Shown: positions 16,596 to 47,292 of the stretch, one piece after another
Layout: the number at the start of each line of letters is the position of its first letter
Position numbering within the stretch: position 1 is the first letter of the stretch
From: Candidatus Levybacteria bacterium RIFCSPHIGHO2_01_FULL_36_15
GTDB taxonomy: Bacteria > Patescibacteriota > Microgenomatia > Levybacterales > GWA1-39-11
Direction of reading: 5' to 3'
Assembly (NCBI GenBank): GCA_001782015.1
Contig: MFNJ01000048.1
Span: forward strand, 1-62,004
Length of the DNA stretch: 62,004 bases
The notes under the pieces: generated by a model
The model's database searches: none
Seen by the model: only the letters and a program-made list of their open reading frames with translations
Told to the model about the DNA's origin: nothing
Position numbers and translations under genes: made by a program

Positions 16596-19536
16596 TATTT
16601 CAATAAAAGAAAAAAAGGTATTAAAAATAAAACATTGGTTTGAAAATGCTCCATGGCTTAGAATTATAATTGTCCTTTCCGTTATTCTCTCGATTGCAGC
16701 CACTGTTTATTCTTACTCTCACGATTACATAATTGCCTACGGAGATGCTGAAAGCCATTTGGATATCGCAAAAAGAGTTGTTCACGGTCTCACGCCCGGC
16801 TTTGCTCAGCTTGGAGGGATATGGTTGCCTTTACCTCATATTTTCATGCTTCCATTTATTCTGTCTGATTTTTTGTGGAGAACAGGACTTGCAGGATCAA
16901 TTATATCCGGAGTTGCTTTTATTATATCAACAATATATATCTATAAACTTACAAACCTCATCACAAAAAACAATCTTGCCTCAGCGGTTGCCGCAATTAT
17001 CTTTGCCACCAACCCCAACGTTTTGTACATGCAATCAACGCCCATGACTGAAATGACTCTTATTGTCTTTTTCATATTATCTTCATACTATTTTGTAAAG
17101 TTCCTGCTTAATAAAGAAAGCATCCTTTCTCTTATTGCGTCCGCGTTTTTTGCTTTCTGCGCGACGCTAAGCCGTTATGACGGATGGTTCTTGGTAATTA
17201 TTGAAGCGCTGATTGTGATTTTAGTTCAGATTCCCAAGGATATTCCAAAAAGACTCATGAGAAATATTATTCAACTTATAAAGCCTTCCGATGACAATTC
17301 ATTTCTTTTAAACGGCAAGTTCAAACAAGTCTTTGAATTTGATCTTAAAAATCACCTTTGGGATAAAAAGAACTTGGAAAAGATCAAGGGAACATTTTTG
17401 TTATTTGCCACCCCTGCTTTTTTTGGCATTTTAATCTGGCTTATCTGGGATCTATTAATACTTGGTGACCCGTTTTATTTTACAAACAGCCAGTTTTCAG
17501 CAAAATCACAACAACATAACTGGCTTATTAAAAATCAGCTTCCGTCCTATCACAATCTTTTGTCGTCATTTTTATATTACTTCTTCACATCCATGAGCAA
17601 TATTGGAATAATTATATTTGCAATCTCGCTTATTGGATTTGTCATGTTCTTATTAAACAAAGACAAAAGAAACAGTCTTGCCATTTCTTTGATCTTAATC
17701 GTTCCTTTTATATTTTACGTAGCCACATTGTTCATTGGCCAATCAGTAATATTTATTCCAAGCCTTACCCCTTCCTCTTTTGAATGGAGGCTCTTTAACG
17801 CCAGGTACGGAACAATGATGGTGCCTTTTGCGGCAATTTTTTTTGCTTATTTATTTTATAAAAGTAAAGTTTCATCAAAAGCTCTTCTTGCTGCTCTTTT
17901 TGTTATACAGCTTGGGTTATATGTAATAGGGTATTCAAAAGTTATCACGCTTGCTGACGGGACTGAGGGTTTGTCTCGGGCTAGATCCCCAAACGTAGAA
18001 AGCTGGATGGCTAAAAACTATGATGGTGGACTTGTTTTAATGGATGACTACGCCCGTACCATGAGTATTATCAGAAGCAATGTACCCATGCAGAATGTGA
18101 TTTATGTAGGTACAAAACCTTACTGGGAAGAATCGCTTGCAGAACCTGAAAAATACGCAAAATGGGTAGTTGTTCAGAACAAAGATGATGTTTGGAAATA
18201 TATTTACAGCAATCCTATTGCTCAAGGCAGACTTTATAAATACTTTGAAAAAGCCTACACTTCTCCTGAAATACTGGTATTTAAAAGGGTAAACGAAGAA
18301 AGCATTGTAAAAAGCTATATGACGCCTACATATGTAAGTAATAATAATCAGGAAATATTATGGCCGGTTCAGGCAATAGACACAATGAAGTATTCCAGAG
18401 ACTACGCACGGGACCCGGAAATATTTAAATATATTCCGTCTGTTGTAGATATGGTTTCCTCCCTTAAAGCCACTCATATTGCGCTGGCAACGCCTTACAA
18501 TGAGGAATTTTATCCAATTCTGAAGGCATGGGTTGAACAAGCAAGAAGGAAAAATCTCAAAGTTTGGTTCAGGGGAAATTTTGCTGAGTGGGAAGGGTGG
18601 TTTGACTATCCCAAAAATATGACGGCAAGTCAACATCATCAAAGTACTTATGCGTTTATACAACAACATTCTGAGTTGTTCGAGACGGGGGACATTTTTA
18701 CCCCGGCTCCCGAACCTGAAAACGGATCAATAGGAGATCCAAGGACATCTTCTGAAAACGCGAAAAGCTTTAATAATTTCTTGATAGATTCTTATGCTAA
18801 CTGTCAAAAAGCTTTCGAGGATATAAATCAGTTTCTTGAAAATAATAAAAAAAGTGTTACCTGTGGATATTTCTCAATGAACGGTGACGTAGCAAAGGAA
18901 TCTTTGACGCGTGAAACAGTCAAAAAAACCGGAAACGTAGTGGTTATTGACCATTATGTCAAAGACCCAAGACAACTATTCACAGATATTGATTATCTGC
19001 ATCAAAAATACGACGCAAACATAGTACTTGGAGAGTTCGGCGCACCAATTCCTGACATTAACGGAAAAATGACAGAAGAAAAACAGGCTGAATTTATTAA
19101 CGAGCTTTTAAAGCAGGCTTATATGAATAAAAAATATGTTGTGGGTGTAAATTATTGGACAGTAACAGGAAGTTCAACCGCTTTATATAACGATGACGGT
19201 TCAGAAAGAAAAGCTACAAAAATAATAAAACAATATTATTTGCCTAATATTATAAGAGGTACAGTGTCCAATACGCTTGGCGAACCGATTGCCAAAGTGG
19301 CAATCAAAACACAAGACGGCCTAAACGCAACTTTAACCGATAAAGATGGAAGATTTTCCCTGTTGGTACCCTCTGTTGATAACCAAATTTACATAATGAA
19401 TGATAAATATAAAAATATTAAGGAAGCCGTTAAAGGAAAAAACAGACAGACCGTGATCAACCTGACTCTTGAGCCAAAAAAGATTGACACTTTTTATAAA
19501 ATAAAAAATATACTTAAGTCGATAGGAATACTCTAG
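16585..19536 (+). CDS. GT-C (ArnT/PMT-like) membrane glycosyltransferase fused to a large extracytoplasmic domain and a CarboxypepD_reg-like domain
   Basis: The N-terminal roughly 480 aa are polytopic, with an early acidic loop (YGDAESH). The C-terminal region carries TIM-barrel-glycosidase-like signatures (APEPEN ... VLGEFGAP), which is tentative. The last roughly 90 aa match the carboxypeptidase-regulatory fold pattern (IRGTVSNTLGEPIAKVAIKT...TDKDGRFSL). Confidence 0.6.
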   Translation: MKISISIKEKKVLKIKHWFENAPWLRIIIVLSVILSIAATVYSYSHDYIIAYGDAESHLDIAKRVVHGLTPGFAQLGGIWLPLPHIFMLPFILSDFLWRTGLAGSIISGVAFIISTIYIYKLTNLITKNNLASAVAAIIFATNPNVLYMQSTPMTEMTLIVFFILSSYYFVKFLLNKESILSLIASAFFAFCATLSRYDGWFLVIIEALIVILVQIPKDIPKRLMRNIIQLIKPSDDNSFLLNGKFKQVFEFDLKNHLWDKKNLEKIKGTFLLFATPAFFGILIWLIWDLLILGDPFYFTNSQFSAKSQQHNWLIKNQLPSYHNLLSSFLYYFFTSMSNIGIIIFAISLIGFVMFLLNKDKRNSLAISLILIVPFIFYVATLFIGQSVIFIPSLTPSSFEWRLFNARYGTMMVPFAAIFFAYLFYKSKVSSKALLAALFVIQLGLYVIGYSKVITLADGTEGLSRARSPNVESWMAKNYDGGLVLMDDYARTMSIIRSNVPMQNVIYVGTKPYWEESLAEPEKYAKWVVVQNKDDVWKYIYSNPIAQGRLYKYFEKAYTSPEILVFKRVNEESIVKSYMTPTYVSNNNQEILWPVQAIDTMKYSRDYARDPEIFKYIPSVVDMVSSLKATHIALATPYNEEFYPILKAWVEQARRKNLKVWFRGNFAEWEGWFDYPKNMTASQHHQSTYAFIQQHSELFETGDIFTPAPEPENGSIGDPRTSSENAKSFNNFLIDSYANCQKAFEDINQFLENNKKSVTCGYFSMNGDVAKESLTRETVKKTGNVVVIDHYVKDPRQLFTDIDYLHQKYDANIVLGEFGAPIPDINGKMTEEKQAEFINELLKQAYMNKKYVVGVNYWTVTGSSTALYNDDGSERKATKIIKQYYLPNIIRGTVSNTLGEPIAKVAIKTQDGLNATLTDKDGRFSLLVPSVDNQIYIMNDKYKNIKEAVKGKNRQTVINLTLEPKKIDTFYKIKNILKSIGIL

Positions 19537-19624: not shown

Positions 19625-20290
19625 ATGGCAGGCAAAAATATTATTTTAGTAATTATCCTATATTTTGTTTTATCTGTTTTTGTGGCTTCTAAAGCACTTG
19701 CGGTAACTATTCCAAGCTTTCCTTCATGTCTAAATATTCAAGGAGAACTTATTGTTTCTTACACAACAGGAACGCATGGAATACCGGGAGACAGCGCAAC
19801 TTATACCGGCAGTGATTCAGTATATAAATTAACAGAAGATACTCTTACCCAATGTTTTTGTTCAGTAAACGGAGATGGTATTCAGACAAACTGGTGGAAA
19901 GTTTCAAGTCTTTCCGACAACGAAATTACTGATCTTAAAAATCAAAATTGGATTTTTATATTAAATGGATCTTTGTGGGGGCTTGATGACGCACCTTACA
20001 TGGCCAAAAATTCAAATTTTTCCTGCCAAACCACAAGCCCAACTCCAACACCTACGTCAAGCAGCAGCTCAAGCTCTTCCGGCAGCAGTTCATCTAGTAG
20101 TAGCTCCAGTTCTTCCGGCAGCTCCGGCAGTGTACAAGCAGCTTCAACAGGCTCTGTTGGACAAGTTCTTGGACTGGCAACCACCGGAAATATTCTAACC
20201 ATATACACTCTTCTTATTGTAGGCATTACATTTATCTTACTTGGAATTATGCTTGCAAGAAAAGAAAGGGGAATATATGGACGAAGATGA
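19625..20290 (+). CDS. Sortase-anchored surface protein (signal peptide, 4-Cys globular domain, TP/poly-Ser stalk, LATTG sorting signal)
   Basis: It has an N-terminal signal peptide (…VASKALA) and the stalk TSPTPTPTSSSSSSSGSSSSSSSSSSGSSGS. LATTG (nt 20174-20188) is followed by a hydrophobic helix and the basic tail ARKERGIYGRR. Confidence 0.8.
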   Translation: MAGKNIILVIILYFVLSVFVASKALAVTIPSFPSCLNIQGELIVSYTTGTHGIPGDSATYTGSDSVYKLTEDTLTQCFCSVNGDGIQTNWWKVSSLSDNEITDLKNQNWIFILNGSLWGLDDAPYMAKNSNFSCQTTSPTPTPTSSSSSSSSGSSSSSSSSSSSGSSGSVQAASTGSVGQVLGLATTGNILTIYTLLIVGITFILLGIMLARKERGIYGRR

Positions 20291-20829
20291 GGAATTTTGT
20301 TTCTAAACTTTTTGTAATCACGGGCTTTATATTTATTCTATCAAGTTTATATTTAGTCTGGCAAAGAAATAACCCCGACAGACTTAGTTTTGATATCAAA
20401 CCTGACACCTTTAAAGAAACAATATACAAAAAAACAGACATAAACCCGGTACAAATAGTAATTCAAGATGTAAATATTAACCTGCCTTTGTACCCTTCAA
20501 TCATTGATGGCAAAAACTGGGAAACAACCACAAAAGGAGCATCATATCTTACCTCATCTCCAATGCCGGGAGAGGAGGGCAATAGCATTATATACGCCCA
20601 TAATTGGAATAACCTCTTTGGAAAAATTGTTCTGGCAAAACCAGGTGGAAAAGTGAAGATAGCATTCAGTGATAATTCAACCAAAACATTTACTATTAAA
20701 TATACCGCTACAGTTACGCCTGATGAAACACATATTTTGAACAAATCAAATGACAAAAGAATCACTCTTTATACCTGCACGGGTATTTTCGACCAGAAAA
20801 GATTTGTAGCGGTGGCAGTTTTGGATTAA
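20287..20829 (+). CDS. Sortase family transpeptidase
   Basis: It has an N-terminal TM anchor, the catalytic His context IIYAHNW, the TLxTC motif (RITLYTCTG) and a downstream Arg (QKRFVAV). Its start overlaps the substrate gene's stop. Confidence 0.85.
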   Translation: MRNFVSKLFVITGFIFILSSLYLVWQRNNPDRLSFDIKPDTFKETIYKKTDINPVQIVIQDVNINLPLYPSIIDGKNWETTTKGASYLTSSPMPGEEGNSIIYAHNWNNLFGKIVLAKPGGKVKIAFSDNSTKTFTIKYTATVTPDETHILNKSNDKRITLYTCTGIFDQKRFVAVAVLD

Positions 20830-26096: not shown

Positions 26097-27062
26097 TCAA
26101 GAATGAGGCGGGGGTTCAACACCAAGAGTTTTCAGCGAATAATCAAGCAAATCTTTCATTTCCATTATTCTGTTTGTACTGTTTAACAAAATGGCTATGA
26201 TTTTATGCCCGTCATATTCCAAGTACGTCACAAGACAAAGCCCTGCTTCATCCGTGTATCCCGTCTTAACACCTTTAACACCCGGATAGGTTGTAAGCAA
26301 ATTTGTTTCATTAAAAAGATATATTTGCTTATGTTGTTCAGTATACGGAATTTCATAATCCACCGTGGAAACTATTTTTGCAAAGTTACCGTTATTCAAA
26401 CCGTAACGGGTAATCACCAGTAAATCAAAAACAGAGCTGTATTGTTTTCCATCGCCTTCAAGACCGGTTGGATTTGTGAAGTGCGTATCAGAAAGTCCCA
26501 GGTCTTCGGCTTTTTTATTCATAAGATAAATAAAATTACTCCTTCCGGACGGCATACTTTCCGCTATAGCCTCCGCGGCATCATTTCCCGAATGCAGAAT
26601 TAAGCCATACATCAAGTCTTCCAAAGAATATTCTTCACCCTTTGTCAGACCCATTGAATCCTCTCCAATACCGGCAGCGCTTTTACTAATTTTTATCTTT
26701 TGATAAAAATCTTCATTTTCAAGAGCGATTACTGCCGTCATTATTTTTGTGAGCGAAGCAATAGGGTAGCGTGACTTTATGTTTTTGTCATACAGCATTC
26801 TTTCAGAAGTTAAATCATAAGAAATTACCGATAGTGCGCTTATTTCCGGCTTCTTAATCCCCTTATCATAGATTTTATCTACTTTTGGCAACCAAAAGCT
26901 GTTTTGTGCTTGAGCTGATAAAACTTTTTGCTCGAACAGCTCAACCGGAGAAATAATAACAGGATTTTTTTCGGGTTTTATAAAAACAAGTGCAATAAGT
27001 AAATAAAAAGAGCAAAAAATCAAAAAAAAGAAACTTGTAAAAAAAATCTTGGACAGTTTCAT
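26097..27062 (-). CDS. Serine-type D-Ala-D-Ala carboxypeptidase (peptidase S11, PBP5-like), membrane anchored
   Basis: It has an N-terminal TM helix, SxxK (ASLTKIM), SxN (HSGND) and KTG (VKTGYT). Confidence 0.85.
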   Translation of the reverse strand: MKLSKIFFTSFFFLIFCSFYLLIALVFIKPEKNPVIISPVELFEQKVLSAQAQNSFWLPKVDKIYDKGIKKPEISALSVISYDLTSERMLYDKNIKSRYPIASLTKIMTAVIALENEDFYQKIKISKSAAGIGEDSMGLTKGEEYSLEDLMYGLILHSGNDAAEAIAESMPSGRSNFIYLMNKKAEDLGLSDTHFTNPTGLEGDGKQYSSVFDLLVITRYGLNNGNFAKIVSTVDYEIPYTEQHKQIYLFNETNLLTTYPGVKGVKTGYTDEAGLCLVTYLEYDGHKIIAILLNSTNRIMEMKDLLDYSLKTLGVEPPPHS

Positions 27063-27073
27063 TCTGATAAGTT

Positions 27074-27781
27074 TTACCGAAGAGTTATTTTTACAAAACC
27101 TTCAGCGTATTTCACACCGTTTTTTTTACCCAGTTCCATTGCTCTTTCTGTTGTTATTTTCACATGCTCATCTTTAATCTGACTTTTATGAGCAGTGAGA
27201 GCTTTAATTTTTATATCAAAGGAAGGAGTAATATCAACAATTTCATTGTAATTGTCAAAATTTACAAAGTATAAATATTTTACCTTATGAGGACTAAGTC
27301 CTTCAACTTCTTGCTCCGGAAATGTCAGCCTGTCGCGCGCAAGTGGAAAAACCGCGTCCATAGCAGCAATCCCTACCGCCCTATGATCTGTATGATTAAC
27401 AGAATTTCGTGAAATTGAATAAACCATAGTTGGATCCAAAGTTACCACTGTATCAGGCTTGAGCATTCTTATATAGCGCACAATATCTCTTTTAACATCA
27501 AGGTTTGGAACAAGTTCAGTATCCGGATAATCAAGAAAAAAAACATTCTTAAGTCCTAAAATTTTCCCTGCATCTATTTGTTCCTTCTGCCTTATTCTAA
27601 TTAACTTTTCAGGAGTAATATTTGGATCACCGGACCCCTTAGAACCGTCCGCGCAAATTAAATAATAACATTCAGCGCCCGTCTGAGCCCACTTGGCAAA
27701 AGTGCCTGAAGCTCCAAATTCAAGATCATCCGGATGAGCAGCCACCCCTAAAATTACTCTTTTTTTATCTTTGTTTTCCAT
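27074..27781 (-). CDS. PIG-L/LmbE family deacetylase
   Basis: Motifs are VAAHPDDLEFGASG and NHTDH. This is the second member of the family in the window. Confidence 0.8.
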   Translation of the reverse strand: MENKDKKRVILGVAAHPDDLEFGASGTFAKWAQTGAECYYLICADGSKGSGDPNITPEKLIRIRQKEQIDAGKILGLKNVFFLDYPDTELVPNLDVKRDIVRYIRMLKPDTVVTLDPTMVYSISRNSVNHTDHRAVGIAAMDAVFPLARDRLTFPEQEVEGLSPHKVKYLYFVNFDNYNEIVDITPSFDIKIKALTAHKSQIKDEHVKITTERAMELGKKNGVKYAEGFVKITLR

Positions 27782-30071: not shown

Positions 30072-31244
30072 TTATCTTCTGTCTAAAGCACCTTCCAGAT
30101 CTGGTCTTGCTCTAAAGAATTGTTTCAAAGCAGGGAAAACGTCTTTCTTATCTGTAATCACAACTGGTGTAAACCTCTTGTCTTTGATTGCTTGAAAAGA
30201 ATTCATAAGCACGGAGGATGAACGAATTGCGCCTTGTCTGATCTCTCCATAACCAAATAAATTGGATCTATCAATAATTTGTTTAATAAGGTCAACGCAT
30301 CTTCTGTTATCAACGTTTCCCCAGTTATCTCCGTCTGAAAAGTGAAAAGGATATGTATTCCAATCATGGGAAGGATAATCTCTATTAATAATATCCAAAG
30401 CCAGCTGGTACGCGGATGAAACTTTGGTCCCGCCTGATTCTCCAAGTTTGAAGAATTTCTGCTCGTCCACCTCCTGGGCTTCTGTATGATGTGTAAGAAA
30501 TCTTATGTCAACTTTATTATATCTTTCCCTTAAGAATCTTACCATCCAAAAATAAAAACTGCGTGTTATGTATTTTTCAAATTCTCCCATACTCCCCGAA
30601 ACATCCCTCATGGCAATAACCGCAGCGTTTGTTTTGGGTTCAGGTTTTCTGTTCCAGGTTCTAAAACGATAATCATCATCTTTAACGCCCCCAAATCTGA
30701 CTTGACCGGTTTGCATAGCGTTGCGCTTCATGTTAGCCTGAAACGTCTTTCTCTTATCAAGATTTGCCCAGAGGCCTTTTTTCCTTACATCATCAAAGAT
30801 TACGCTTTCGCTTTCCATTTCACGGGCTTGTTTTTGCTGCAAATTGGGTAACTCTAAATCTTCAAAAACAAGTTTAGCAAGATCATCAATTGTTATGTCA
30901 ACCTCCTCATAGTCTATTCCCGGCTGGTCTCCTGCTTGTCTTCCGCGTCCTGAGACATCCTGCCCAACAGAGTCTCCCGGCTGCGAATCACCGTCTCCCT
31001 GTCCTATATGTTTGTTCTTGCCAAAATCATACCTGAAACGCGGAAGCTCTAATCTTCTCATTGGAACTTTTACAATTTTTTTTCCGTCCGAAGTAATTAT
31101 GGCTTCCTCAGAAATTATCCTTGGAAGGTTTCCTTTAATTGCTTCTTTTACTTTTTCATCATGCCTTGCAGCGTCTGCGTGGCCTTTCCTATGAAGGCTC
31201 CAGTCCTGCTTGGATAATGTAATTGTTTCATGTCCTGTTCCCAT
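30072..31244 (-). CDS. YeaH/YhbH (DUF444, UPF0229) vWA-like protein
   Basis: Blocks match E. coli YeaH as I recall it: LVFEDLELPNL, RDVSGSM, FLTHHTEAQEVDEQKFF, ESGGTKVSSAY and HFSDGDNW. Confidence 0.85.
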   Translation of the reverse strand: MGTGHETITLSKQDWSLHRKGHADAARHDEKVKEAIKGNLPRIISEEAIITSDGKKIVKVPMRRLELPRFRYDFGKNKHIGQGDGDSQPGDSVGQDVSGRGRQAGDQPGIDYEEVDITIDDLAKLVFEDLELPNLQQKQAREMESESVIFDDVRKKGLWANLDKRKTFQANMKRNAMQTGQVRFGGVKDDDYRFRTWNRKPEPKTNAAVIAMRDVSGSMGEFEKYITRSFYFWMVRFLRERYNKVDIRFLTHHTEAQEVDEQKFFKLGESGGTKVSSAYQLALDIINRDYPSHDWNTYPFHFSDGDNWGNVDNRRCVDLIKQIIDRSNLFGYGEIRQGAIRSSSVLMNSFQAIKDKRFTPVVITDKKDVFPALKQFFRARPDLEGALDRR

Positions 31245-33741: not shown

Positions 33742-34827
33742 TTAGTATTGTTTCCAGGTTAAGTATTTAGCCAAAAGCTTCTGTGAATTAAGGTTAAAAG
33801 ATTTAATGCCGTATTTGGCAAAACCTAAATCCAAAAGCCTTGCAGAAAGAAGATCTCTTTCAAATATGTCAGAAGTCCCCAGTAAAACAACCATTATCCT
33901 TCTGTCTTCTCTTTGGGAAAGAGTAACCATTGTTGTACCTGCATCTCTGCTGTTACCAATCTTCACTCCTTCAATGCCAGGATAAACATTTAAAAGTCCA
34001 TTCCAATTGTAAAGGTTAAACTGCTTGTGATTGCTATCGGCTTCCAAAAACTGATAGTCCTTTTTAACAATTTTAGCAAATAATGGGTAAGTTAACGCGT
34101 AATGTGAAAGAACAGCCAAATCTTCTGCGCTGCTGAAATTTTCCTTGCTGTCAAAACCCTGGGGGTTTGCAAAGTGCGTATTTGAAAGACCTAAAATCTT
34201 TGCTTTTTCGTTCATGCTTTTTATAAAAATATTCTCACCGTATCTTTTATTTAACTCTTCTTTTATAACCTCTGTAGCGTCATTGGCAGAAGTAAGCAGG
34301 GAAGCGTTTAATAGTTCTTCCAGTGTCATTTTTTGACCCGGAACGACTCCAATTTTAGTGGGTATCTGATCTGCTGCATTTCGGGAAACTTCAAAAACAT
34401 CCGTAGGGCTTGCAAGATCAAGAGCAACAATAGCAGTCATAATCTTTGTGAGGGACGCAATTGGCACTTTTTTGGAAATCTTCCTTCCGGATAGTACTTC
34501 TCCGGTATCATAATTTACCACAAGATAAGAAAGAGTCTCAGGGTAAGAAACATCAGATATCTGATAGGGAAGGACAACCTCTTTTTGTTTCAGTTTAAAC
34601 TGGTTTACATTTTTAAGAAGTTTAGGTTTTATTGTCTCAATAAGATTCTCACTTTTGTAGCTTACTTTTTCTTGTGAGAGAAAAAATGATTTCGGTAGCC
34701 TGATCCCTATATGTTGGACAGAAACCATAAAAAATATTGCCAAAAAACCTATCCAAAATCCTTTTAAGTCAAATGAAGAAAATTCGATTGCTTTAAAATA
34801 CCCTTTTATTTTTCGCATACACCTCAA
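33742..34827 (-). CDS. Serine-type D-Ala-D-Ala carboxypeptidase (peptidase S11), membrane anchored; second copy
   Basis: It has a TM helix, SxxK (ASLTKIM), SxN (TSAND) and a KxG variant (VKIGNS). Confidence 0.8.
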   Translation of the reverse strand: MRCMRKIKGYFKAIEFSSFDLKGFWIGFLAIFFMVSVQHIGIRLPKSFFLSQEKVSYKSENLIETIKPKLLKNVNQFKLKQKEVVLPYQISDVSYPETLSYLVVNYDTGEVLSGRKISKKVPIASLTKIMTAIVALDLASPTDVFEVSRNAADQIPTKIGVVPGQKMTLEELLNASLLTSANDATEVIKEELNKRYGENIFIKSMNEKAKILGLSNTHFANPQGFDSKENFSSAEDLAVLSHYALTYPLFAKIVKKDYQFLEADSNHKQFNLYNWNGLLNVYPGIEGVKIGNSRDAGTTMVTLSQREDRRIMVVLLGTSDIFERDLLSARLLDLGFAKYGIKSFNLNSQKLLAKYLTWKQY

Positions 34828-35112: not shown

Positions 35113-37380
35113 CTACAAAAATAAACTTACCTTTTTTTTGAATATTTGAAGAACAGGAATGAACTTTGTTTTAAGCAAAAATAACAAGTATACTAATGGA
35201 ATAATAACTATAAGCCAGGCAAGATTGATTTTTATATTTTTTGTTTTGGATTGAATCTTTGCTGCGCCAAAATCCGCACTCTTGATTCCCGCAACTGCAA
35301 CATAGGAATTGGGAGCAGCATTGTAAACAAGCGAGTTTTTACTTCCGGAAGTATTATTTGTATTTACCGGATTAAAAAGGATCGAAGAAGCATTATTTTT
35401 ACTTTCCGAAGCAACGAAGTTAGAGGATGGCTGATTTGACGATTTACCAGTGCTGTTATTTTGACTTTCATTAGTAGAAGAAACAGTATTGTCAGCAGTG
35501 TCTGAATTCTGTGAAGAACTATCAGTAGAAGAAGTATTTGTGTCTTTTGTGGCTCCCGGAGGAAGAAAATCTCCCACCCAACTGCCAAATACGTTGACAA
35601 CTGTAACCAGAAGCTTTCCCCCACCTGTAATATTATTGTTTACAAAATTGACAAGACTGGCAATAACGTGGGCATCACCGGTTTGAATATAAGATGTACC
35701 CCCCGTATTGTCATTTGCAGAATTTTCTCCGGTACTGGCAGAAAGATTAATGTTGTTATTTATCTTTGCGTTATTCGTTTGACTGACTGTATTACTATCT
35801 GACTGGCTGGAGGAAGCATTGTTTTCAGAACCTGAAGAATTGCCGGAATTTACCGCTGTCACGTCACCGTTTCCATTAACGCTAAACTGTGTACCGGCTG
35901 AGGCGGCATAACTTGATCCGGCAGGACTACCCACAATTTGCCCGATCCACTGGCCAGCTTTGTTCACTATCACAAGCCAGATGTTTCCTCCATCAATATT
36001 TGAATTGGCAACATTAAGAGTTTGCGCATCAACTGTTGCGCTTCCTGTTTTAACAACAGAATCTCCCCCTGTATTTGCAGATGTATTATTGTCTCCGGTT
36101 GTTGCCAGCAGATTGAGATTATTTTGGATATTTGCCTCATTATTTTGTAGTGTTGTATCAGTTGCAGATGTAGAAGCATTGGCGCTGTTGGAAGAAAACG
36201 AACCGTTTGCCGAATTTTGAGCCGAAGTATTTGTTGACGTACCACTGCAATTGCCGCAGGAGTCAAACGAACTTGCAGGAAGTACTATATCTCCTGTTAA
36301 ATTTCCATAAACATTAACTACTCCCACAGCCACATTTCCGGTAATGTTATTGTTTAAAAAAGTTAAGGCGTTTCCGGAAACATTCGCATCACCAGTTTGA
36401 ACCACAGAATCTCCCCCCGTATTTTTACTTGAGTCATTTTTACCCGAGTCAGCCATAAGAATCAAGGTGTTCTCAACAGTTCCATCGTTACTCTGAAAGG
36501 TATTATTATTTGTAATATTGGAGCTTTCTGCCGTGTTAGTGGAGTCTGATCCGTTTGCAACATTGCCGGCAGAAACAGTACCGTTTGCACATCCGGAAAT
36601 ACAGTTTGCTCCATAATCCAGAACCAAGTTGCCTTTCTGATCATCCACAACGTTAAACTCTGAAACTGAAACGCCGGACAAATTTGTGTTTGCCGCAGTA
36701 ATGATAGTTCCTGATATATTGGCATTTCCGCTACTGATAAAAGAATTTCCTACATTGCCGGATGCTGTATTACCTCCGGTTACGGAAGATTTGTTTAAGT
36801 TATTTGAAATATCAGCGGCATTTTGCTGAACAGTTGAGGAATTACTTGTTGAGTCTGCCAAAGCACTGTTTGTTGAAAAAGAGCCGTTCTCTGAATTTGC
36901 AGCCTGGACACCGGAAGAGTTATTGCCGCCTGGCGTATTAGAATCTGAGCCTGCCGTTTGATTGCCGTTAGTATTTGTATTTGTAACTGTTGTTAGAACT
37001 CCTGTATTGGTTACATTGCCTGTTTTTACAGCTATATCCCCAACTGCCCCTTCAGGCACAGTGGAATTATTTGTTTGCGATTGAGTTTGTTGAGTCTGAT
37101 CATGTGGAGCAGAAGTTTCAGCTGGAGACGTAGTACTATTATTATCGCTTGTAGAATCTGATGCTGGAGGCGTTGAGGACGGAGCAGTAGGAGCGCTTGG
37201 CGCAGGCGCGGGATCTGAGGGAGCAGAAGGAACGGATGGTGCACTTGGGGCAGATACGGCGGATGGAGCAGTAGGAGCAGACAGAATAACATCTTCTGCG
37301 TTTACAGATAAGATGTTTACAAAAAACAGACAAACGATTGTAAGTAATGTTATATATTTTTTAATCCTCATGTTCAACAT
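35113..37380 (-). CDS. Secreted, C-terminally membrane-anchored repeat protein (PAPS-rich linker plus 3-4 N/S/T/G-rich modules); family unknown
   Basis: It has a signal peptide (…NILSVNA) and the linker APTAPSAVSAPSAPSVPSAPSDPAPAPSAPTAPS. The core TG.N....NTGGDSVV.TGDA.V recurs, each copy followed by a hydrophobic segment (VAVGVVNVYGNLTGDIVLP; IWLVIVNKAGQWIGQIVGSP; LLVTVVNVFGSWVGDFLPPG). A C-terminal TM helix closes the protein. Confidence 0.7.
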   Translation of the reverse strand: MLNMRIKKYITLLTIVCLFFVNILSVNAEDVILSAPTAPSAVSAPSAPSVPSAPSDPAPAPSAPTAPSSTPPASDSTSDNNSTTSPAETSAPHDQTQQTQSQTNNSTVPEGAVGDIAVKTGNVTNTGVLTTVTNTNTNGNQTAGSDSNTPGGNNSSGVQAANSENGSFSTNSALADSTSNSSTVQQNAADISNNLNKSSVTGGNTASGNVGNSFISSGNANISGTIITAANTNLSGVSVSEFNVVDDQKGNLVLDYGANCISGCANGTVSAGNVANGSDSTNTAESSNITNNNTFQSNDGTVENTLILMADSGKNDSSKNTGGDSVVQTGDANVSGNALTFLNNNITGNVAVGVVNVYGNLTGDIVLPASSFDSCGNCSGTSTNTSAQNSANGSFSSNSANASTSATDTTLQNNEANIQNNLNLLATTGDNNTSANTGGDSVVKTGSATVDAQTLNVANSNIDGGNIWLVIVNKAGQWIGQIVGSPAGSSYAASAGTQFSVNGNGDVTAVNSGNSSGSENNASSSQSDSNTVSQTNNAKINNNINLSASTGENSANDNTGGTSYIQTGDAHVIASLVNFVNNNITGGGKLLVTVVNVFGSWVGDFLPPGATKDTNTSSTDSSSQNSDTADNTVSSTNESQNNSTGKSSNQPSSNFVASESKNNASSILFNPVNTNNTSGSKNSLVYNAAPNSYVAVAGIKSADFGAAKIQSKTKNIKINLAWLIVIIPLVYLLFLLKTKFIPVLQIFKKKVSLFL

Positions 37381-37429
37381 ATTTTTTAATTTATTAAATA
37401 TTTATAATTTTGAATAATTTCATTTTCTG

Positions 37430-37472
37430 GAGGCGGATGTCTTGCTGAAGTGAAACAATAAACATCCACCTC
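37430..37472 (-). promoter_or_regulatory. Intercistronic hairpin between the two repeat-protein genes
   Basis: The 11-bp stem (GAGGTGGATGT/ACATCCGCCTC on the minus strand) is fully paired only in the minus-strand RNA, through one G-U pair. The loop is 21 nt and no U-tail follows. Confidence 0.35.
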
Positions 37473-37485
37473 ACAGAAATTTGGT

Positions 37486-38709
37486 CTAATGGTGTAGGAA
37501 GCCCAATAGTCCTCCTAAATCAAAACTGAGATCTAGTTGGACGTCATGTGGAAAACTAACACCAGTACCGAAAAGATTTACATTACCAGTATTTCTTACG
37601 TCAGTATCTGACCTGGCATTACCGGTAAGTATCACTGTTGGATCGCCTACTGCTGGGCCGGTATTTCTGTTGGCATAATTTTTTCCGGTCTTGGCATCGG
37701 CATCTACGTCATTGTATATATCAAGCTCATTGTCTTGGAAGACTGAATTTGAATCAACAAGGTATGCCGTAATATCATTAGTAGAATTTGATCCGTTACC
37801 GGAAATTTTTGCAGAAATATCTGTCAAACATCCGCAATTTAAATCTGCTGCGTTGAAGTTTGCAAGATTCCTGACATCAACATTCGTACGGGCATCGCCA
37901 GTAGCAATTACAACGTCTCCTCCTGTATTATCATTAGCATTATTGCGTCCAGTTTTAGCATTGGCGTCAACATAATTCATTATGTACGCGTCGTTGTCCT
38001 GAACTAAAGTCCTGGAAACATCATGATTTAAATCTATGGAGTTATCGCTGTAGGAACCGTTTCCTGAAATAGTCGCATCCAGAGATCCCTGACTTCCATC
38101 TCCACTGCCTATTTTTGCCACATTCGCATTGGCCGCATTTCTAACATCCACATTGGATGTTGCATTACGTGTTACAATTGTGACATCTCCACCTGTATTT
38201 CTGTTAGCGTCATTTTTGCCTGTATAGGCATTTGAGTCAATATCATTTGTTATATCCGCCTTATTATCTTGAAATACTGAGGTGTCTGAAGAATTATCAA
38301 GTTCAACTGAATTATCGGAATACGATCCGTTGCCTGAAATATTTACTCTTATATCAGTATTACAACCGTTACAATTATCTAAATCTGCTTTATTAAGATT
38401 AACTTCGGTAGTAACATCCACCTTGGAACGAGCATCTCCCGTGGAGATTAATACATCTCCATTTGTATTGTCATTCGCGGAGTTTCCGCCTGTTGACGCA
38501 TTGGAATCTATGTCGTTACTTATTGTAGCATCGTTACTTTGTACCACAGTTGTGGTGTGGTCTACGGTAACGTTTGCTGTGTTTGTTGAGGATGATCCAT
38601 TACCAGAGAGTGTTATTTTTGTATCGGCAAGTGCAACTGGTGCAAAGGTATTTAAAAGCATTGCTCCTGTTGCTGCTACTGTTATTATTTTTCTAGTTAT
38701 GTTTAACAT
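37486..38709 (-). CDS. Secreted repeat protein, four ~90-aa modules; paralogous to modules of 35113-37380; family unknown
   Basis: It has a signal peptide (…APVALA). SGNGS occurs at aa 35, 125, 215 and 303. Each copy is followed by V.Q.N.A.I.ND(I/V)D(S/A)NA.TG.N.AN.NTGGDV.I.TG(D/N)AR..VDVRN. A strong SD GGAAGGAGGTGA precedes the gene. Confidence 0.75.
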   Translation of the reverse strand: MLNITRKIITVAATGAMLLNTFAPVALADTKITLSGNGSSSTNTANVTVDHTTTVVQSNDATISNDIDSNASTGGNSANDNTNGDVLISTGDARSKVDVTTEVNLNKADLDNCNGCNTDIRVNISGNGSYSDNSVELDNSSDTSVFQDNKADITNDIDSNAYTGKNDANRNTGGDVTIVTRNATSNVDVRNAANANVAKIGSGDGSQGSLDATISGNGSYSDNSIDLNHDVSRTLVQDNDAYIMNYVDANAKTGRNNANDNTGGDVVIATGDARTNVDVRNLANFNAADLNCGCLTDISAKISGNGSNSTNDITAYLVDSNSVFQDNELDIYNDVDADAKTGKNYANRNTGPAVGDPTVILTGNARSDTDVRNTGNVNLFGTGVSFPHDVQLDLSFDLGGLLGFLHH

Positions 38710-38756
38710 ATTTTCACCTCCTTCCGTTTTAATAATTTTCTCTTAATGAGAACACT

Positions 38757-38888
38757 TCTTACACATAATAGAAATGCTTATTTAAAATAGAATGAGGAAT
38801 TTGTAAGAGTTTGGTAAATGTAAGCATTATTACAGATAAAAATAATTATTAAATTCAAATTATTGTGTAAGAATTTTATTTACTTACA
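38757..38888. repeat. Five copies of TGTAAG (either orientation) in the upstream region of the repeat-protein operon
   Basis: The copies lie at 38757-38765 (tcttacaca), 38802-38808, 38819-38825, 38864-38872 (tgtgtaaga) and 38883-38888 (cttaca). The first and fourth form a 9-bp inverted repeat. Confidence 0.4.
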
Positions 38889-39124: not shown

Positions 39125-39937
39125 TTATTTATTTAAATTAAGAATTGTTTTTCCTTTGGCTATTTCTCCAATTTTTAACCTGAGATTTTTATCATTATCA
39201 TTTATGGGAAAACCCAATCTTGTATCTTTTGTGGAAATTGCCTGTATTTCAACTGGATCGTTATGAATATCAGCGGCAAACCAGTCGTTTTTGTTATTTG
39301 AAGAAAGCCTGACATAATCTCTTGCGTTAACCTGGAAATTCTGGTTACTACCGTTTTTTAATTTCAGATTAACTATTAAAAAAGTTTTCCCTTTAACAGC
39401 TCTTGCGATTTGCCCTCTGACAACTATTTCATCCTGAATTTCAACAGATTCTATGGAGTATTTAATTGTTAAATCCTGCCCGTTTATGCTTTTTATACTA
39501 AATGCAAATTCTTTATTTATCTGCTGCTTTGACTTTGGACCGGGAATCTGAACTCTATTATCAGATACTCCAAAACTTAAAACATTTGTTCCTATAAAAC
39601 CATTCAAGGCACTCATCCTACCGGCTAAAAAAGATGAAAGCAGAAGTAGTACCGCTAAAATAGACAATAAGAATTTTTTAGTTATTAACTTGAAAAGGAG
39701 AAAGTGTTTAACGTTTGATTTTCTTTTTTCATTTACGGCAGGATTTGTAAGAGGATGTGATTGCGAATTAACATATGGTTCGCTCCGCCAGTTAGCAGAC
39801 TGTGGAGAAGATGAAGCTAGTAAATTATCGGAAACATCAGGTTTATTCAGCCCAGTATGATTGAATTTTGAGGAAGAAAAAAAATATATTGGCTTTAGAA
39901 AAATACTTAAAATATATCTGTTAATAAATGCTTTCAT
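39125..39937 (-). CDS. Membrane-anchored protein with DUF4352-like Ig-fold domain
   Basis: A central TM helix is followed by the C-terminal pattern VRGQIARAVKGKTFLIVNLKLKNGSNQNFQVNARDYVRL, which is typical of DUF4352. This was assigned from memory. Confidence 0.55.
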   Translation of the reverse strand: MKAFINRYILSIFLKPIYFFSSSKFNHTGLNKPDVSDNLLASSSPQSANWRSEPYVNSQSHPLTNPAVNEKRKSNVKHFLLFKLITKKFLLSILAVLLLLSSFLAGRMSALNGFIGTNVLSFGVSDNRVQIPGPKSKQQINKEFAFSIKSINGQDLTIKYSIESVEIQDEIVVRGQIARAVKGKTFLIVNLKLKNGSNQNFQVNARDYVRLSSNNKNDWFAADIHNDPVEIQAISTKDTRLGFPINDNDKNLRLKIGEIAKGKTILNLNK

Positions 39938-40494
39938 ATTTTACTGCTAATATACATTATATTAATTGTTGTATTTTTTTCCGTCGTCCTTTTAGAAATT
40001 TCCACATTTATTTGATTTTTTCCATCAGAGGCTACCAGTTTATTAAATGTGTTGTCTTTTGTCTGTTTTTTAACTGATTTCTGAATAGTCATATTCAAAT
40101 TTTGCAGTTTTTTCTTATACCAATTTGTTATTACATTTATATTATCTCCGCTTTGCAAAACCATTGCATTATTACTTCTGTCAACCAAAACGGATCCTTG
40201 ATATTTAAAGCCGGAAAGATATTTAGAAAAATCAGATGCAATAATACCAGTTGATTTAGACATTAAGGAAATATTCGTGTAATTTAACGCATAAGAAGCA
40301 GAGAATTCATCGCTTTCTAACTTTATTATTTTCAGCTTACGGGAGAAAAGAATGGCAGATGCCAACACAATCAAAACAATAAATAAAGACATTTTAACTT
40401 TCATGAATAAACTTTCTTTAGCTACTAATCTATTATCTGGATATAAGAAGCAAGCAAAAAAAATGTAAGAAAAAAGAAAGAAAAGAAATGACAA
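39934..40494 (-). CDS. Hypothetical membrane-anchored protein
   Basis: It has an N-terminal TM segment and no recognisable motif. Its stop overlaps the start of 39125-39937 (ATGA). Confidence 0.5.
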   Translation of the reverse strand: MSFLFFLFSYIFFACFLYPDNRLVAKESLFMKVKMSLFIVLIVLASAILFSRKLKIIKLESDEFSASYALNYTNISLMSKSTGIIASDFSKYLSGFKYQGSVLVDRSNNAMVLQSGDNINVITNWYKKKLQNLNMTIQKSVKKQTKDNTFNKLVASDGKNQINVEISKRTTEKNTTINIMYISSKI

Positions 40495-45609: not shown

Positions 45610-47292
45610 CTATTGGATTTTTACGGGCAAGTTATTTTTCATTTGATCATAAACGTATTTTGTTATTATATCGTCTGAAATTGTATTTGCTCTTTTTCCG
45701 GCAATAAGAGCATCTTTCTTATTTCCCAGTTTGTACTCAGAAATTGCCAAATACAGCCAAAGCCTTACAGAATCAGGGTAATCGGAAACCGCAGCTTTAG
45801 TGAGGTTCCGTGCTTTATTATCGTTTCCCTGAACAATAAGAATTTCCGCAAGATTTGCGTAAGTTAGTTCATAGTGCTTATGGCTTGTATCAAGGTTATA
45901 ATTTTTTGCGCCAAGAGCTTTTTCATAAATATTTCTCGCGCTTTCTAAATCTCCAAGCTTTTGATAAGCTATTCCAAGATTTGTAAGGTTTGTTTCATAG
46001 GGCAGTGTAGCCACAGATTTTTCAAGATAAGTTTTGGCTTCTTTATATTTTCCATCCAGAATAAGCTCAGCGCCCAACGCGTTTTCTATATCATAATTAT
46101 CCTCTATTTTTATGTCATGCGAAAACAAAGTACTAGCAGTCTGCCAGTTGGAATTCCTGATTATAGTCCGTAGGCCAAACAAAATCAGAATAATTATAAG
46201 TGATGAAAAGAAAATCCTGTTGAATCTAATACTTAACTTCTCAGCTAAAATACCCAGTGTTCCTATTAGACCCACCATAGCAAAATAAAACCATCTATCA
46301 GCCACTGTCATGTCAAGAGCAACAATTTGCGTGTAAGGTAAAATTCCCACTAAAAACCAGATCAAGAAAAAGATTAATTTTTTGCTTTTATGATTATCCA
46401 CCAAATGTAGCCTTACAGTAAAATAGAATAAAACGGAGAAGAAAAAAAATAAAACAAAAAGCGGAAGATAAAAATTTGTCAGATTAATTTTAGTCACTAT
46501 CCAAAGCTGGTCAACCGAAAGAGTAATTGGAAAGAAAAATGTTTTTAAGTAATAAAATAATACAGCAGGCACATTGATCATCCGCTCCCAAAAAGAAAGC
46601 CTCATAATGGGTATTGAATAAACGTTTATAAGCTCAAAACCGTGTAACAGCCATCTTACAAATATATAAATAGCAAGCGTCATGAAAGATGCAAGACAGA
46701 AATATAAAAATTTTATTCTGTTAAAAATAAATCTGTAAATAAGTATCAAAAGCAAAAAAACTATACCGGTTTCTTTTGTAAATAAAGACAAAAGAATAAA
46801 TAGATAAATAAAAATTAATGAGGTAATTTTGGGATTATCTTTAACAGCTTTTAAAAATGCAATCGCTCCAAAAACAAAATAAACCTCACTGACGGATGAG
46901 CTAATATATGAAACAGACTCAACATTCATGGGATGAACAAGAAAAATAAGGGAAAGAAAAAAAGAAATTTTTTCTTTCATAAATTTTCTGAAAATAATAA
47001 AAACCAAATATACACTCAAAATATGAAGTACTAATTGAAAAAGATGATAGTAAAAAGCATTTTGGCCAAAAAGAGTGTATAAAGCAGAAAAATATATAGC
47101 AGATATAGGTTTGTAATACGAACCGTAATTAAAATAGTTTTTTCCAAAAAGCTTTAAAACATTAAAAGAGTAAAGATCGGGATTTCCAATAATAAAAACT
47201 TTATCATCCCAAACAAAATTATTAAAAAGGGCATTAGCAAAAACCAAAAAACCAACAAAAAAAAATATTAATATATATTTTTTATTTGACAT
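45610..47292 (-). CDS. GT-C membrane glycosyltransferase with C-terminal TPR repeats (TMTC/PMT-like)
   Basis: It has the first-loop acidic motif NNFVWDD and about 10 TM helices. The C-terminal roughly 170 aa are TPR-like (AELILDGKYKEAKTYLEKS...YQKLGDLESARNIYEKAL...). Confidence 0.7.
   Translation of the reverse strand: MSNKKYILIFFFVGFLVFANALFNNFVWDDKVFIIGNPDLYSFNVLKLFGKNYFNYGSYYKPISAIYFSALYTLFGQNAFYYHLFQLVLHILSVYLVFIIFRKFMKEKISFFLSLIFLVHPMNVESVSYISSSVSEVYFVFGAIAFLKAVKDNPKITSLIFIYLFILLSLFTKETGIVFLLLILIYRFIFNRIKFLYFCLASFMTLAIYIFVRWLLHGFELINVYSIPIMRLSFWERMINVPAVLFYYLKTFFFPITLSVDQLWIVTKINLTNFYLPLFVLFFFFSVLFYFTVRLHLVDNHKSKKLIFFLIWFLVGILPYTQIVALDMTVADRWFYFAMVGLIGTLGILAEKLSIRFNRIFFSSLIIILILFGLRTIIRNSNWQTASTLFSHDIKIEDNYDIENALGAELILDGKYKEAKTYLEKSVATLPYETNLTNLGIAYQKLGDLESARNIYEKALGAKNYNLDTSHKHYELTYANLAEILIVQGNDNKARNLTKAAVSDYPDSVRLWLYLAISEYKLGNKKDALIAGKRANTISDDIITKYVYDQMKNNLPVKIQ

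Follow-up and report, generated by a model that had tools for sequence, protein, structure and literature searches.

A 62,004-nucleotide (nt) contig of Candidatus Levybacteria bacterium RIFCSPHIGHO2_01_FULL_36_15 (MFNJ01000048.1, assembly GCA_001782015.1; the whole stretch is called the window below) carried two adjacent genes, A and B, encoding proteins built from the same repeated module of about 90 amino acids (aa). Protein A was predicted to be secreted and protein B to be anchored in the membrane, and the module was new to the libraries searched. The conserved unit exceeded two genes: it included at least gene D, usually orf186-like (gene E) and YezD-like proteins, and conserved RNA elements, and in most related genomes a third modular paralogue, C, followed B. 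The most likely product of the cluster is a cell-surface polymer not described before. It would be of a known kind, that of self-assembling surface proteins with anchored paralogues, in a poorly known bacterial class; the module and the attached RNA element are new. The original prediction, made from the sequence of this stretch without database searches, had proposed that A and B form a novel surface fibre or layer; its reading was largely right, but incomplete, and wrong on the neighboring genes.

Microgenomates and other bacteria of the candidate phyla radiation (CPR) represent a large share of bacterial diversity, and the makeup of their cell surface is almost unknown. The CPR envelope is the contact zone for hosts, phages and minerals, and most conserved secreted proteins of these bacteria are unnamed. 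A very large unannotated family with a fixed neighborhood and with predicted free, membrane-anchored and wall-anchored forms is a candidate major envelope polymer of the whole class, testable through metaproteomics, recombinant assembly and cryo-electron tomography.

Modular architecture of proteins A and B

The two open reading frames (ORFs) of the original prediction were recovered on the minus strand (37486-38709, 407 aa; 35113-37380, 755 aa). A hidden Markov model (HMM) of the module, built from A-family repeats, was applied to both proteins, and structures were predicted with AlphaFold2 (AF2; pLDDT and pTM are its local and global confidence scores). The features of the two genes were as follows.

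37486..38709, minus strand: gene A, secreted 407-aa protein (ORF; repeats; homologues; AF2 all-beta model)
38356..38622, minus strand: A module 1, aa 30-118, then CNGC (module HMM, E 6e-27)
38089..38352, minus strand: A module 2, aa 120-207 (module HMM, E 3.4e-32)
37819..38082, minus strand: A module 3, aa 210-297, then CGC (module HMM, E 1e-32)
37549..37818, minus strand: A module 4, aa 298-387, with an insertion within the NTG loop (module HMM, E 2.6e-30)
35113..37380, minus strand: gene B, predicted 755-aa type I membrane protein (ORF; 440 homologues; AF2; module HMM)
37051..37293, minus strand: B Pro/Ala/Ser-rich linker, aa ~30-110 (sequence; pLDDT <50)
36652..36909, minus strand: B module 1, aa 158-243 (module HMM, E 9.7e-11)
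36319..36576, minus strand: B module 2, aa 269-354 (module HMM, E 5.4e-11)
35980..36228, minus strand: B module 3, aa 385-467 (module HMM, E 9.8e-14)
35608..35862, minus strand: B module 4, aa 507-591 (module HMM, E 1.2e-16)
35146..35235, minus strand: B juxtamembrane motif K-x-I-N-L-A-W, Pro-containing transmembrane helix and start of the basic tail, aa ~716-745 (sequence; AF2)

Protein A consisted of a signal peptide (aa 1-28, ending in ...VALA before DT), four modules of about 90 aa and a short conserved C-terminal tail (F.FDL..LL..L). The signal peptide and four repeats had been seen in the sequence, and the repeats were recovered as four module HMM matches (E 6e-27 to 1e-32). The SGNGS starts (aa 35, 125, 215 and 303) and the sole cysteines of the protein (C113/C116 in CNGC, C292/C294 in CGC) also lay where they had been described. 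The C-terminus (...GGLLGFLHH) displayed neither a transmembrane segment nor an LPxTG-like sorting signal. Mature A was acidic, with an isoelectric point (pI) of 4.1, and the protein was rich in Asn, Asp, Thr, Ser and Ala (12% Asp, 15% Asn), with Gly/Asp-rich turns (TGGN.AN.NTGGD..I.TGDA). A role of GNGS as an N-glycosylation sequon was rejected, the third position not being kept as Ser/Thr among homologues.

Protein B comprised a signal peptide, the Pro/Ala/Ser-rich linker, a partial module ahead of module 1 (about aa 111-135, from the sequence and the B-family consensus), four modules with hydrophobic beta extensions, a stalk of about 100 residues rich in Ser, Thr and Asn, and a C-terminal anchor, where AF2 placed a helix at residues 720-754. 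The N-terminal linker and the anchor agreed with the earlier description. The core, thought to be reused three to four times, occurred in exactly four complete modules by HMM (E 1e-10 to 1e-16). A hydrophobic segment ending in G.(W/L).G(D/Q)(I/F) had been assigned to each core of B; it was present after modules 2-4 (GNLTGDI, GQWIGQI, GSWVGDF), but module 1 was followed by a degenerate form (GNLVLDY). The N[LIVM]AW motif at the membrane was shared by 67 of 70 B-family members. With INLAW, a transmembrane segment and a basic tail but without an LPxTG-like motif, the C-terminus of B fitted no known C-terminal sorting-signal model.

Homology between A and B extended across their whole repeat regions (tblastn 1e-23, composition-corrected; blastp 4.6e-48, uncorrected), and with the module HMM matches it bore out the claim that both are built from a common module. 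One soluble, secreted protein and one membrane-anchored protein were likewise predicted.

Conserved Cys pairs (CxC, CxxC or CxxxC) were located after alternate modules in both proteins (aa 113/116 and 292/294 in A; aa 260/264 and 375/378 in B). Together with the 'CCP' of paralogue C, these pairs may staple the stacked rungs by disulfides or form a metal site across them. Long antisense or out-of-frame ORFs within A and B (38282-38746, 37691-37975 and 35960-36220, plus strand, among others) were by-products of the repeats, and should not be called genes; 249 ORFs of this type formed one cluster across 78 loci.

Distribution of the module family

No match to A, B or any of 36 isolated modules was obtained in Pfam (E up to 1), NCBIfam or PHROGs. 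Searches of PDB chains by sequence returned nothing with either a single sequence or a 78-sequence profile as query, and Foldseek against PDB and BFVD returned no significant match (TM-score 0.17 or less). The module could not be assigned to a named family in the original prediction, which had named a match to a characterized repeat family as the contrary outcome; the Pfam, NCBIfam, PHROG and PDB sequence searches were all empty. The module family was described nowhere among what literature searches turned up.

Among the candidates scored, 521 significant relatives were found for A and 440 for B, all labelled 'hypothetical', with conserved lengths (about 410 aa for A-type and 730 aa for B-type proteins). 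Their named sources were Levy-, Woese-, Gottesman-, Davies- and Amesbacteria and 'Microgenomates'. Related loci were collected from one genome per GTDB species by a search run from a 15-sequence alignment; 141 stretches encoded a relative and 80 loci were kept, once more of Microgenomates lineages, which added Shapiro-, Chisholm- and Roizmanbacteria to the sources. An exhaustive profile search retrieved 3160 clusters (50% identity) at E up to 1e-3, of which 1022 at E up to 1e-30, and almost all named records belonged to Microgenomates. Four-module proteins were the commonest in the family, along with some 3- and 5-module variants, and the sequence of A was conserved at about 50-60% between candidate phyla.

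Related loci L005, L007-L010, L013-L015 and about 40 others (accessions beginning with CAY or CAZ) came from third-party metagenome-assembled genome records, many of them titled 'uncultured Gammaproteobacteria', one Methylomirabilota and one Nealsonbacteria. These records with a Microgenomates-type cluster are probably mislabelled or mis-binned.

Conserved gene cluster

The order D-A-B was found on a single strand in 79 of 81 loci. Two further genes of the cluster were encoded upstream of A in the window.

39125..39937, minus strand: gene D, 270 aa, N-terminal membrane anchor and distant DUF4352-like beta-sandwich ectodomain (79/81 loci, same order and strand)
39934..40494, minus strand: gene E (orf186-like), 186 aa, N-terminal membrane anchor (often upstream of D)

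The DUF4352 match of D was weak (E 3e-4 in the window) and was obtained for 7 of 31 family members (best 3e-5). Gene E had no Pfam match; an E-like gene was encoded ahead of D in 32 of 81 loci according to tblastn and in 39 loci according to clustering. A small YezD/DUF2292-like ORF of about 67 aa (motif YGS.EIYVQ...VTQITVRNIKKT) separated D from A in 68 of 80 loci (in L011, for example, at 7528-7731), and was missing from the 415-bp D-A spacer of the window.

B could be located in 70 loci, and in 48 of them the next gene was paralogue C. C proteins (190-410 aa) harbored a signal peptide, 1-4 of the same modules, then 'CCP' and a Pro/Thr- and Gly-rich linker, and nearly all copies ended with a sorting signal (LP[AVIQE]TG or GL[SA]xx[ST]G), a hydrophobic segment and a basic tail. 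A total of 59 loci encoded a sortase (TLxTC motif), mostly right after C. Overall, about 50-60 of 80 loci had a C paralogue with a sorting signal and then a sortase. D, E, the YezD-like ORF, paralogue C and the sortase were the conserved neighbors across the 80 loci. In most related genomes B is followed by C, with its LPxTG or LAxTG-like sorting signal, and by a sortase, which strengthened the predicted surface location of the system. Of the surface fibre or layer originally put forward, the surface part was reinforced; the fibre or layer is an inference.

A two-component system and wall-remodelling enzymes had been placed immediately upstream of A and B, with a suggested link to them. The two-component system and the S11 carboxypeptidase actually lie at lower coordinates than B, which places them downstream of it as transcribed. 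A histidine kinase, a response regulator and an S11 carboxypeptidase were each found beside B in 1 of 81 loci, and the two-component system and the carboxypeptidase were therefore rejected as members of the system. Library domains on the neighbors of A and B in the window were limited to the weak DUF4352, Phage_holin_4_2, Peptidase_S11 and the two-component system.

The only sortase of the window (20287-20829, plus strand) followed its own substrate (19625-20290, plus strand). This substrate had a signal peptide and an unrelated N-domain containing Cys, and its Ser/Thr/Pro linker led to the sorting signal LGLATTG. The LGLATTG-type motif occurred also in short C paralogues of other genomes.

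Predicted fold of the module

AF2 models based on family alignments were all-beta for A (pLDDT 70.7, pTM 0.66) and B (pLDDT 63.7, pTM 0.55), with pLDDT above 90 for the module cores of B. Strands of A recurred at the same position in each module (42-74/132-164/222-252/310-340, 86-89/176-179/266-269/358-361 and 93-110/183-200/273-290/365-380), as did isolated beta-bridges in the TGGN.AN.NTGG loop (equivalent residues 77/167/257 and 82/172/262). The weak Foldseek matches were nearly all parallel beta-solenoids, including FapC, CsgA, Ag43, SufB/D, RTX blocks, a Ca2+-dependent antifreeze protein, pectate lyases, tailspikes and 'curlin associated' phage proteins; serine-rich repeat protein (SRRP) adhesins were also matched. 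FapC and CsgA headed the PDB fold matches without being significant, and FapC was the best (E 5e-3, probability 0.12 and TM-scores 0.08/0.17 for A; E 1.4 for B). Beta-helix families (pectate-lyase-like, tailspikes) matched at E 0.04 or more with TM-scores not above 0.08, and Pfam Beta_helix was not matched.

Mean-field couplings were computed from 1650 modules (effective number 1347) and from 300 full-length A proteins (effective number 263), and were filtered for gap and terminal-column artefacts. Within the module, segment 28-42 paired with segment 64-77 through conserved alternate residues (V/Q/N/A/V/N/V facing A/S/V/N/A), and the GNGS segment was tied to the NTGG/TGD loop. Of the top 300 couplings in A, 23 were at separations of 89/90 and 18 at 178/179, and only 4 fell at any other separation beyond 93. 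One position, the x of A-N-x-N-T-G-G, formed a ladder across the four modules: among 184 proteins, it read DRDR in 61, DDDD in 36, FFFF in 12, RRRR in 10, QQQQ in 5 and EEEE in 4.

Taken together, the couplings, the ladder position and the solenoid-type fold matches point to four wide rungs stacked in register, each of them shaped as a two-layer beta-arch, with the topology derived from DSSP strings, couplings and types of fold match. The modules of A and B are fairly likely to form a beta-solenoid. Such a fold, already suggested from the composition, was the one that best fitted the AF2 model and its fold matches, and the repeat-to-repeat couplings were compatible with it. It may represent a new cross-beta architecture with unusually wide rungs.

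The same features were weighed for a module acting as a cation-binding wall or envelope protein, a Ca2+-dependent beta-roll comparable to RTX or Ca2+-dependent antifreeze adhesins, with a function in ion buffering, mineral nucleation or envelope stabilization. The Asp and Asn content of A (12% and 15%) and its Gly/Asp-rich turns recall GGxGxD, the DDDD and EEEE ladders would require counter-ions, and both RTX structures (at E 0.7-0.9 only) and Ca2+-dependent antifreeze beta-helices were among the weak fold matches. However, neither the whole proteins nor the 36 modules matched HemolysinCabind (PF00353) or any other Pfam family at E up to 1, and the commonest ladder was the self-neutralizing DRDR. 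Cation binding as the function of the module appears highly improbable, and is compatible with a polymer rather than opposed to it.

The presence of the self-associating autotransporter Ag43 and of SRRP adhesins among the weak matches, and the sortase anchoring of one paralogue, as in Gram-positive adhesins, would also suit adhesins or host-binding proteins with a beta-solenoid fold that act independently on an episymbiotic CPR cell (cf. Ag43, pertactin and serine-rich repeat adhesins), in which A, B and C do not co-assemble. Every CPR bacterium cultivated so far reportedly lives as an epibiont. Against such adhesins, the anchorless A was the most conserved member and the best equipped for expression, its conservation of about 50-60% between candidate phyla and its fixed module number were unlike those of fast-evolving adhesins, and the conserved strand face corresponded to the buried face instead of an exposed binding face. 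We regard independent adhesins as distinctly unlikely.

RNA elements and translation signals

Translation signals differed between A and B, and two complementary RNA elements flanked A.

38715..38721, minus strand: Shine-Dalgarno site of A, GGAGGTG, 5 nt before ATG (sequence)
37424..37479, minus strand: A-B intercistronic RNA hairpin, directly 3' of the A stop codon, with loop CACUUC at 37447-37452 (folding; covariance model)
38753..38758, minus strand: 5' leader motif of A, GAAGUG, GAAGUGC in most loci (sequence; reverse complement of the A-B hairpin loop)

The strong Shine-Dalgarno site reported for the first gene was found again (GGAGGTG, 5 nt before ATG), and a strong site (GGAGGTGA or GGGGGTGA) preceded A in 63 of 67 loci, compared with a Shine-Dalgarno-like site ahead of B in 1 of 67; the start context of B was A/T-rich.

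The 105-nt A-B spacer of the window folded into a hairpin of -29.1 kcal/mol (z -5.6; 0 of 200 shuffles folded as well). It held a U-G wobble, which is an A-C mismatch on the opposite strand, so that the hairpin was perfect only on the coding strand, as had been noticed from the sequence. Over all A-B spacers examined, the median was -31 kcal/mol (z -5.9), and 64 of 64 were below -15 kcal/mol. A covariance model built from 12 gap-free copies matched 60 of 80 loci, once in each and always immediately past the A stop codon, with no further match in 1.24 Mb; the copy of the window was diverged and scored below the threshold of the model. In the model-fitted alignment, 95.4% of the cells were paired, two-sided changes occurred in 15 of 15 pairs, and the covariation score reached 0.81, versus 0.25 for shuffled and 0.05-0.13 for slid alignments. 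A plain MAFFT alignment of the intergenic regions analyzed with RNAalifold gave 4 base pairs only, stems of variable length being misaligned. No Rfam family corresponded to the hairpin (best local scores of 14-18 bits versus thresholds of 39-109), and only tRNAs passed the Rfam gathering threshold in the window and eight related loci.

The hairpin loop was 8 nt long and read N-GCACUUC in most loci. Its complement, the leader motif, preceded the Shine-Dalgarno site of A by 25-72 nt (mostly 35-62) in 58 of 58 scorable loci, window included, without overlapping this site, and was followed by a small hairpin (UUCUC-AUUAA-GAGAA). Leader and loop varied in a compensatory manner in several loci (GAAGUGU/ACACUUC in L002; GAAGUGA/UCACUUC in L007 and L010; UAAGUGC/GCACUUA in L009), and ten pairs had a mismatch at an end position. 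From these sequences, the complementarity might reflect a 5'-3' kissing contact within the A mRNA, which, jointly with the hairpin, would favor A over B. A function of GAAGTGC/GCACTTC as DNA inversion sites was unlikely, as A had the same orientation in all 80 loci.

Precedents exist in the intercistronic hairpins after major-subunit genes (papA) and in the pairing of 5' and 3' untranslated regions (icaR of S. aureus). As after papA, a stable stem-loop directly followed the presumed major-subunit gene A, ahead of genes for minor components; as in icaR, a conserved 7-nt complementarity joined the 5' leader and a 3' element of the same mRNA. Unlike in these precedents, the loop sequence of the A-B hairpin was invariant across candidate phyla, the element had no Rfam match and the 5' partner lay off the Shine-Dalgarno site. 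This compact RNA element with conserved 5'-3' complementarity represents a testable case of bacterial mRNA end-to-end pairing.

In many loci (L002, L003, L007, L010-L013 and others; e.g., at about 1530-1660 in L003), a promoter-like TTGACAA was present further upstream of A, followed by a conserved GCTGACCGCAAACGGAGGC...GCCTCCGTTTTTTT terminator-like hairpin. Its core 7-mers ACGGAGG/TCCGTTT were found in 52-53 of 67 loci, and a longer flank in 37. This element, absent from the window and without Rfam match, may act as a leader attenuator or as a small RNA.

Proposed assembly of the surface polymer

The regulation of the cluster points to one very abundant subunit, A. The building block would be the all-beta module of about 90 residues, with successive modules most likely stacked in register, and each protein would form a short, wide four-rung beta-solenoid with open top and bottom edges. 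A would be exported by Sec without any anchor and made in large excess, through its own leader, its strong Shine-Dalgarno site and its stable 3' hairpin, which probably ends or protects the A mRNA. B, downstream of the hairpin and without Shine-Dalgarno site, would be made at a low level. Its C-terminal helix would sit in the membrane and its stalk would present the modules; because these are the same modules as in A, B could provide the base or template on which A stacks. C would be attached covalently to the wall by its dedicated sortase and would play the same base role at the peptidoglycan level, while D, E and, elsewhere, the YezD-like protein may act as assembly or chaperone factors. Module homology, the conserved and ordered cluster, the sorting signals, the covarying hairpin and the unequal ribosome-binding sites are shown by the sequences; the in-register solenoid, the joint assembly of A with B and C, the abundance of A and the surface location are inferred from them.

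The assembly we tentatively favor, as a serious possibility that falls somewhat short of probable, is an envelope polymer in which free, abundant A subunits stack on membrane-anchored B and, in most genomes, on wall-anchored C. A wider proposal goes further: the cluster would encode a class-wide Microgenomates envelope polymer not recognized until now, perhaps the S-layer (surface layer) or sheath seen on ultra-small CPR cells, with giant-rung (about 90 aa) cross-beta solenoid subunits stacked in register on membrane-anchored and sortase-anchored paralogues, and with a stoichiometry set by a new kind of mRNA element, the invariant 3' hairpin loop kissing the 5' end of the same mRNA. In this complete form, it is rather doubtful.

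Several observations weigh against a stacked polymer of A. The confidence of the AF2 models was moderate for A and B, and their fold matches were not significant (TM-scores of 0.17 or less). Module identity was higher within one protein (0.44-0.55) than for different modules of different proteins (0.43), so the repeat-to-repeat couplings may owe something to a partial concerted evolution of the modules. The hairpin had no U-tract, for which reason a canonical intrinsic terminator was rejected. In addition, the window encoded no paralogue C and no sortase beside B.

A two-dimensional paracrystalline S-layer was considered as another arrangement, in which flat four-rung units of A would associate by lateral contacts, with B and C as membrane and wall tethers. 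The acidic, Asn/Asp/Thr/Ser/Ala-rich A (pI 4.1), apparently built for high expression, its tightly conserved length and four-module count, as a lattice unit would need, and the long stalk of B, which would fit a tether, are all in line with such a layer. An S-layer has reportedly been seen by cryo-electron microscopy on ultra-small groundwater CPR cells, its protein being unidentified. However, Pfam and NCBIfam gave A and B neither SLH nor CWB2 nor any other domain known to anchor S-layers, 3- and 5-module variants occur, and the open-edged solenoid implied by the couplings would favor stacking along the hydrogen-bond axis. We consider an S-layer formed in this way unlikely.

Comparison with known surface-protein systems

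The proposed polymer follows the logic of chaplins and of curli/Fap, yet without sequence or profile membership in those families. In Streptomyces, short secreted chaplins (ChpD-H) share one self-assembling beta domain with long chaplins (ChpA-C), which a sortase fixes to the wall by their LAxTG-type signal and which hold the polymer on the cell. Free and sortase-anchored paralogues of one domain are found here as well, by analogy only, with C encoded in related loci and not in the window. By contrast with chaplins, A and B had no Pfam Chaplin/DUF320 match, the module is about 90 aa long and occurs four times, versus about 40 aa for the chaplin domain, a transmembrane-anchored paralogue (B) is added, and the accessory genes and phylum differ.

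Like CsgA/CsgB of curli and FapC/FapB, A would be an abundant secreted subunit with imperfect repeats, predicted stacked rungs and Asn/Gln/Gly-rich conserved positions, and its gene adjoins that of a homologous cell-attached partner, B, as a possible nucleator. The rungs of A and B are about four times longer, though, and fold TM-scores with these systems were 0.17 or less. Curlin_rpt (PF07012) was not matched by A, B or the 36 modules (Pfam, E up to 1), and hhalign of the module profile against CsgA of E. coli (CsgA sequence entered by hand) gave a probability of 0.1%. No secretion gene of CsgG/CsgE/CsgF or FapF type was encoded among the window neighbors or the conserved neighbors of the 80 loci; the host of the A/B cluster is presumably monoderm.

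Pam pili (PamA/PamB) are CPR-specific, Sec-exported surface filaments of Saccharimonadia and Microgenomatia, made of previously unannotated proteins with paired cysteines, encoded with membrane-anchored accessory proteins; their pilins combine a beta-sandwich with an incomplete immunoglobulin-like domain and polymerize by donor-strand exchange (bioRxiv 10.64898/2026.03.03.709456). A and B share with them the CPR host, Sec export, former lack of annotation, membrane-anchored partner and paired cysteines. They differ by their four tandem homologous modules, which set them apart from the described architecture; on this architectural ground, Pam pili appear not to explain A and B. PDB fold and sequence searches with A and B returned no Pam-type entry.

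Other genes of the window

Wall-modifying enzymes were concentrated in one part of the window, with two S11 D-Ala-D-Ala carboxypeptidase paralogues within 8 kb (26097-27062 and 33742-34827, minus strand) and a PIG-L deacetylase (27074-27781); this local concentration is unrelated to the conserved cluster. A DUF444 (YeaH-like) protein was encoded at 30072-31244 (minus strand; E 1e-99), which was unexpected for a small CPR genome. The usual companions of the DUF444 family are PrkA and SpoVR. Three large multi-pass membrane proteins were encoded at 15045-19536 (plus strand) and 45610-47292 (minus strand), one of them with a weak PMT_2 (mannosyltransferase-like) match and tetratricopeptide repeats. 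They are candidates for the glycosylation of Ser/Thr/Pro-rich linkers of envelope proteins.

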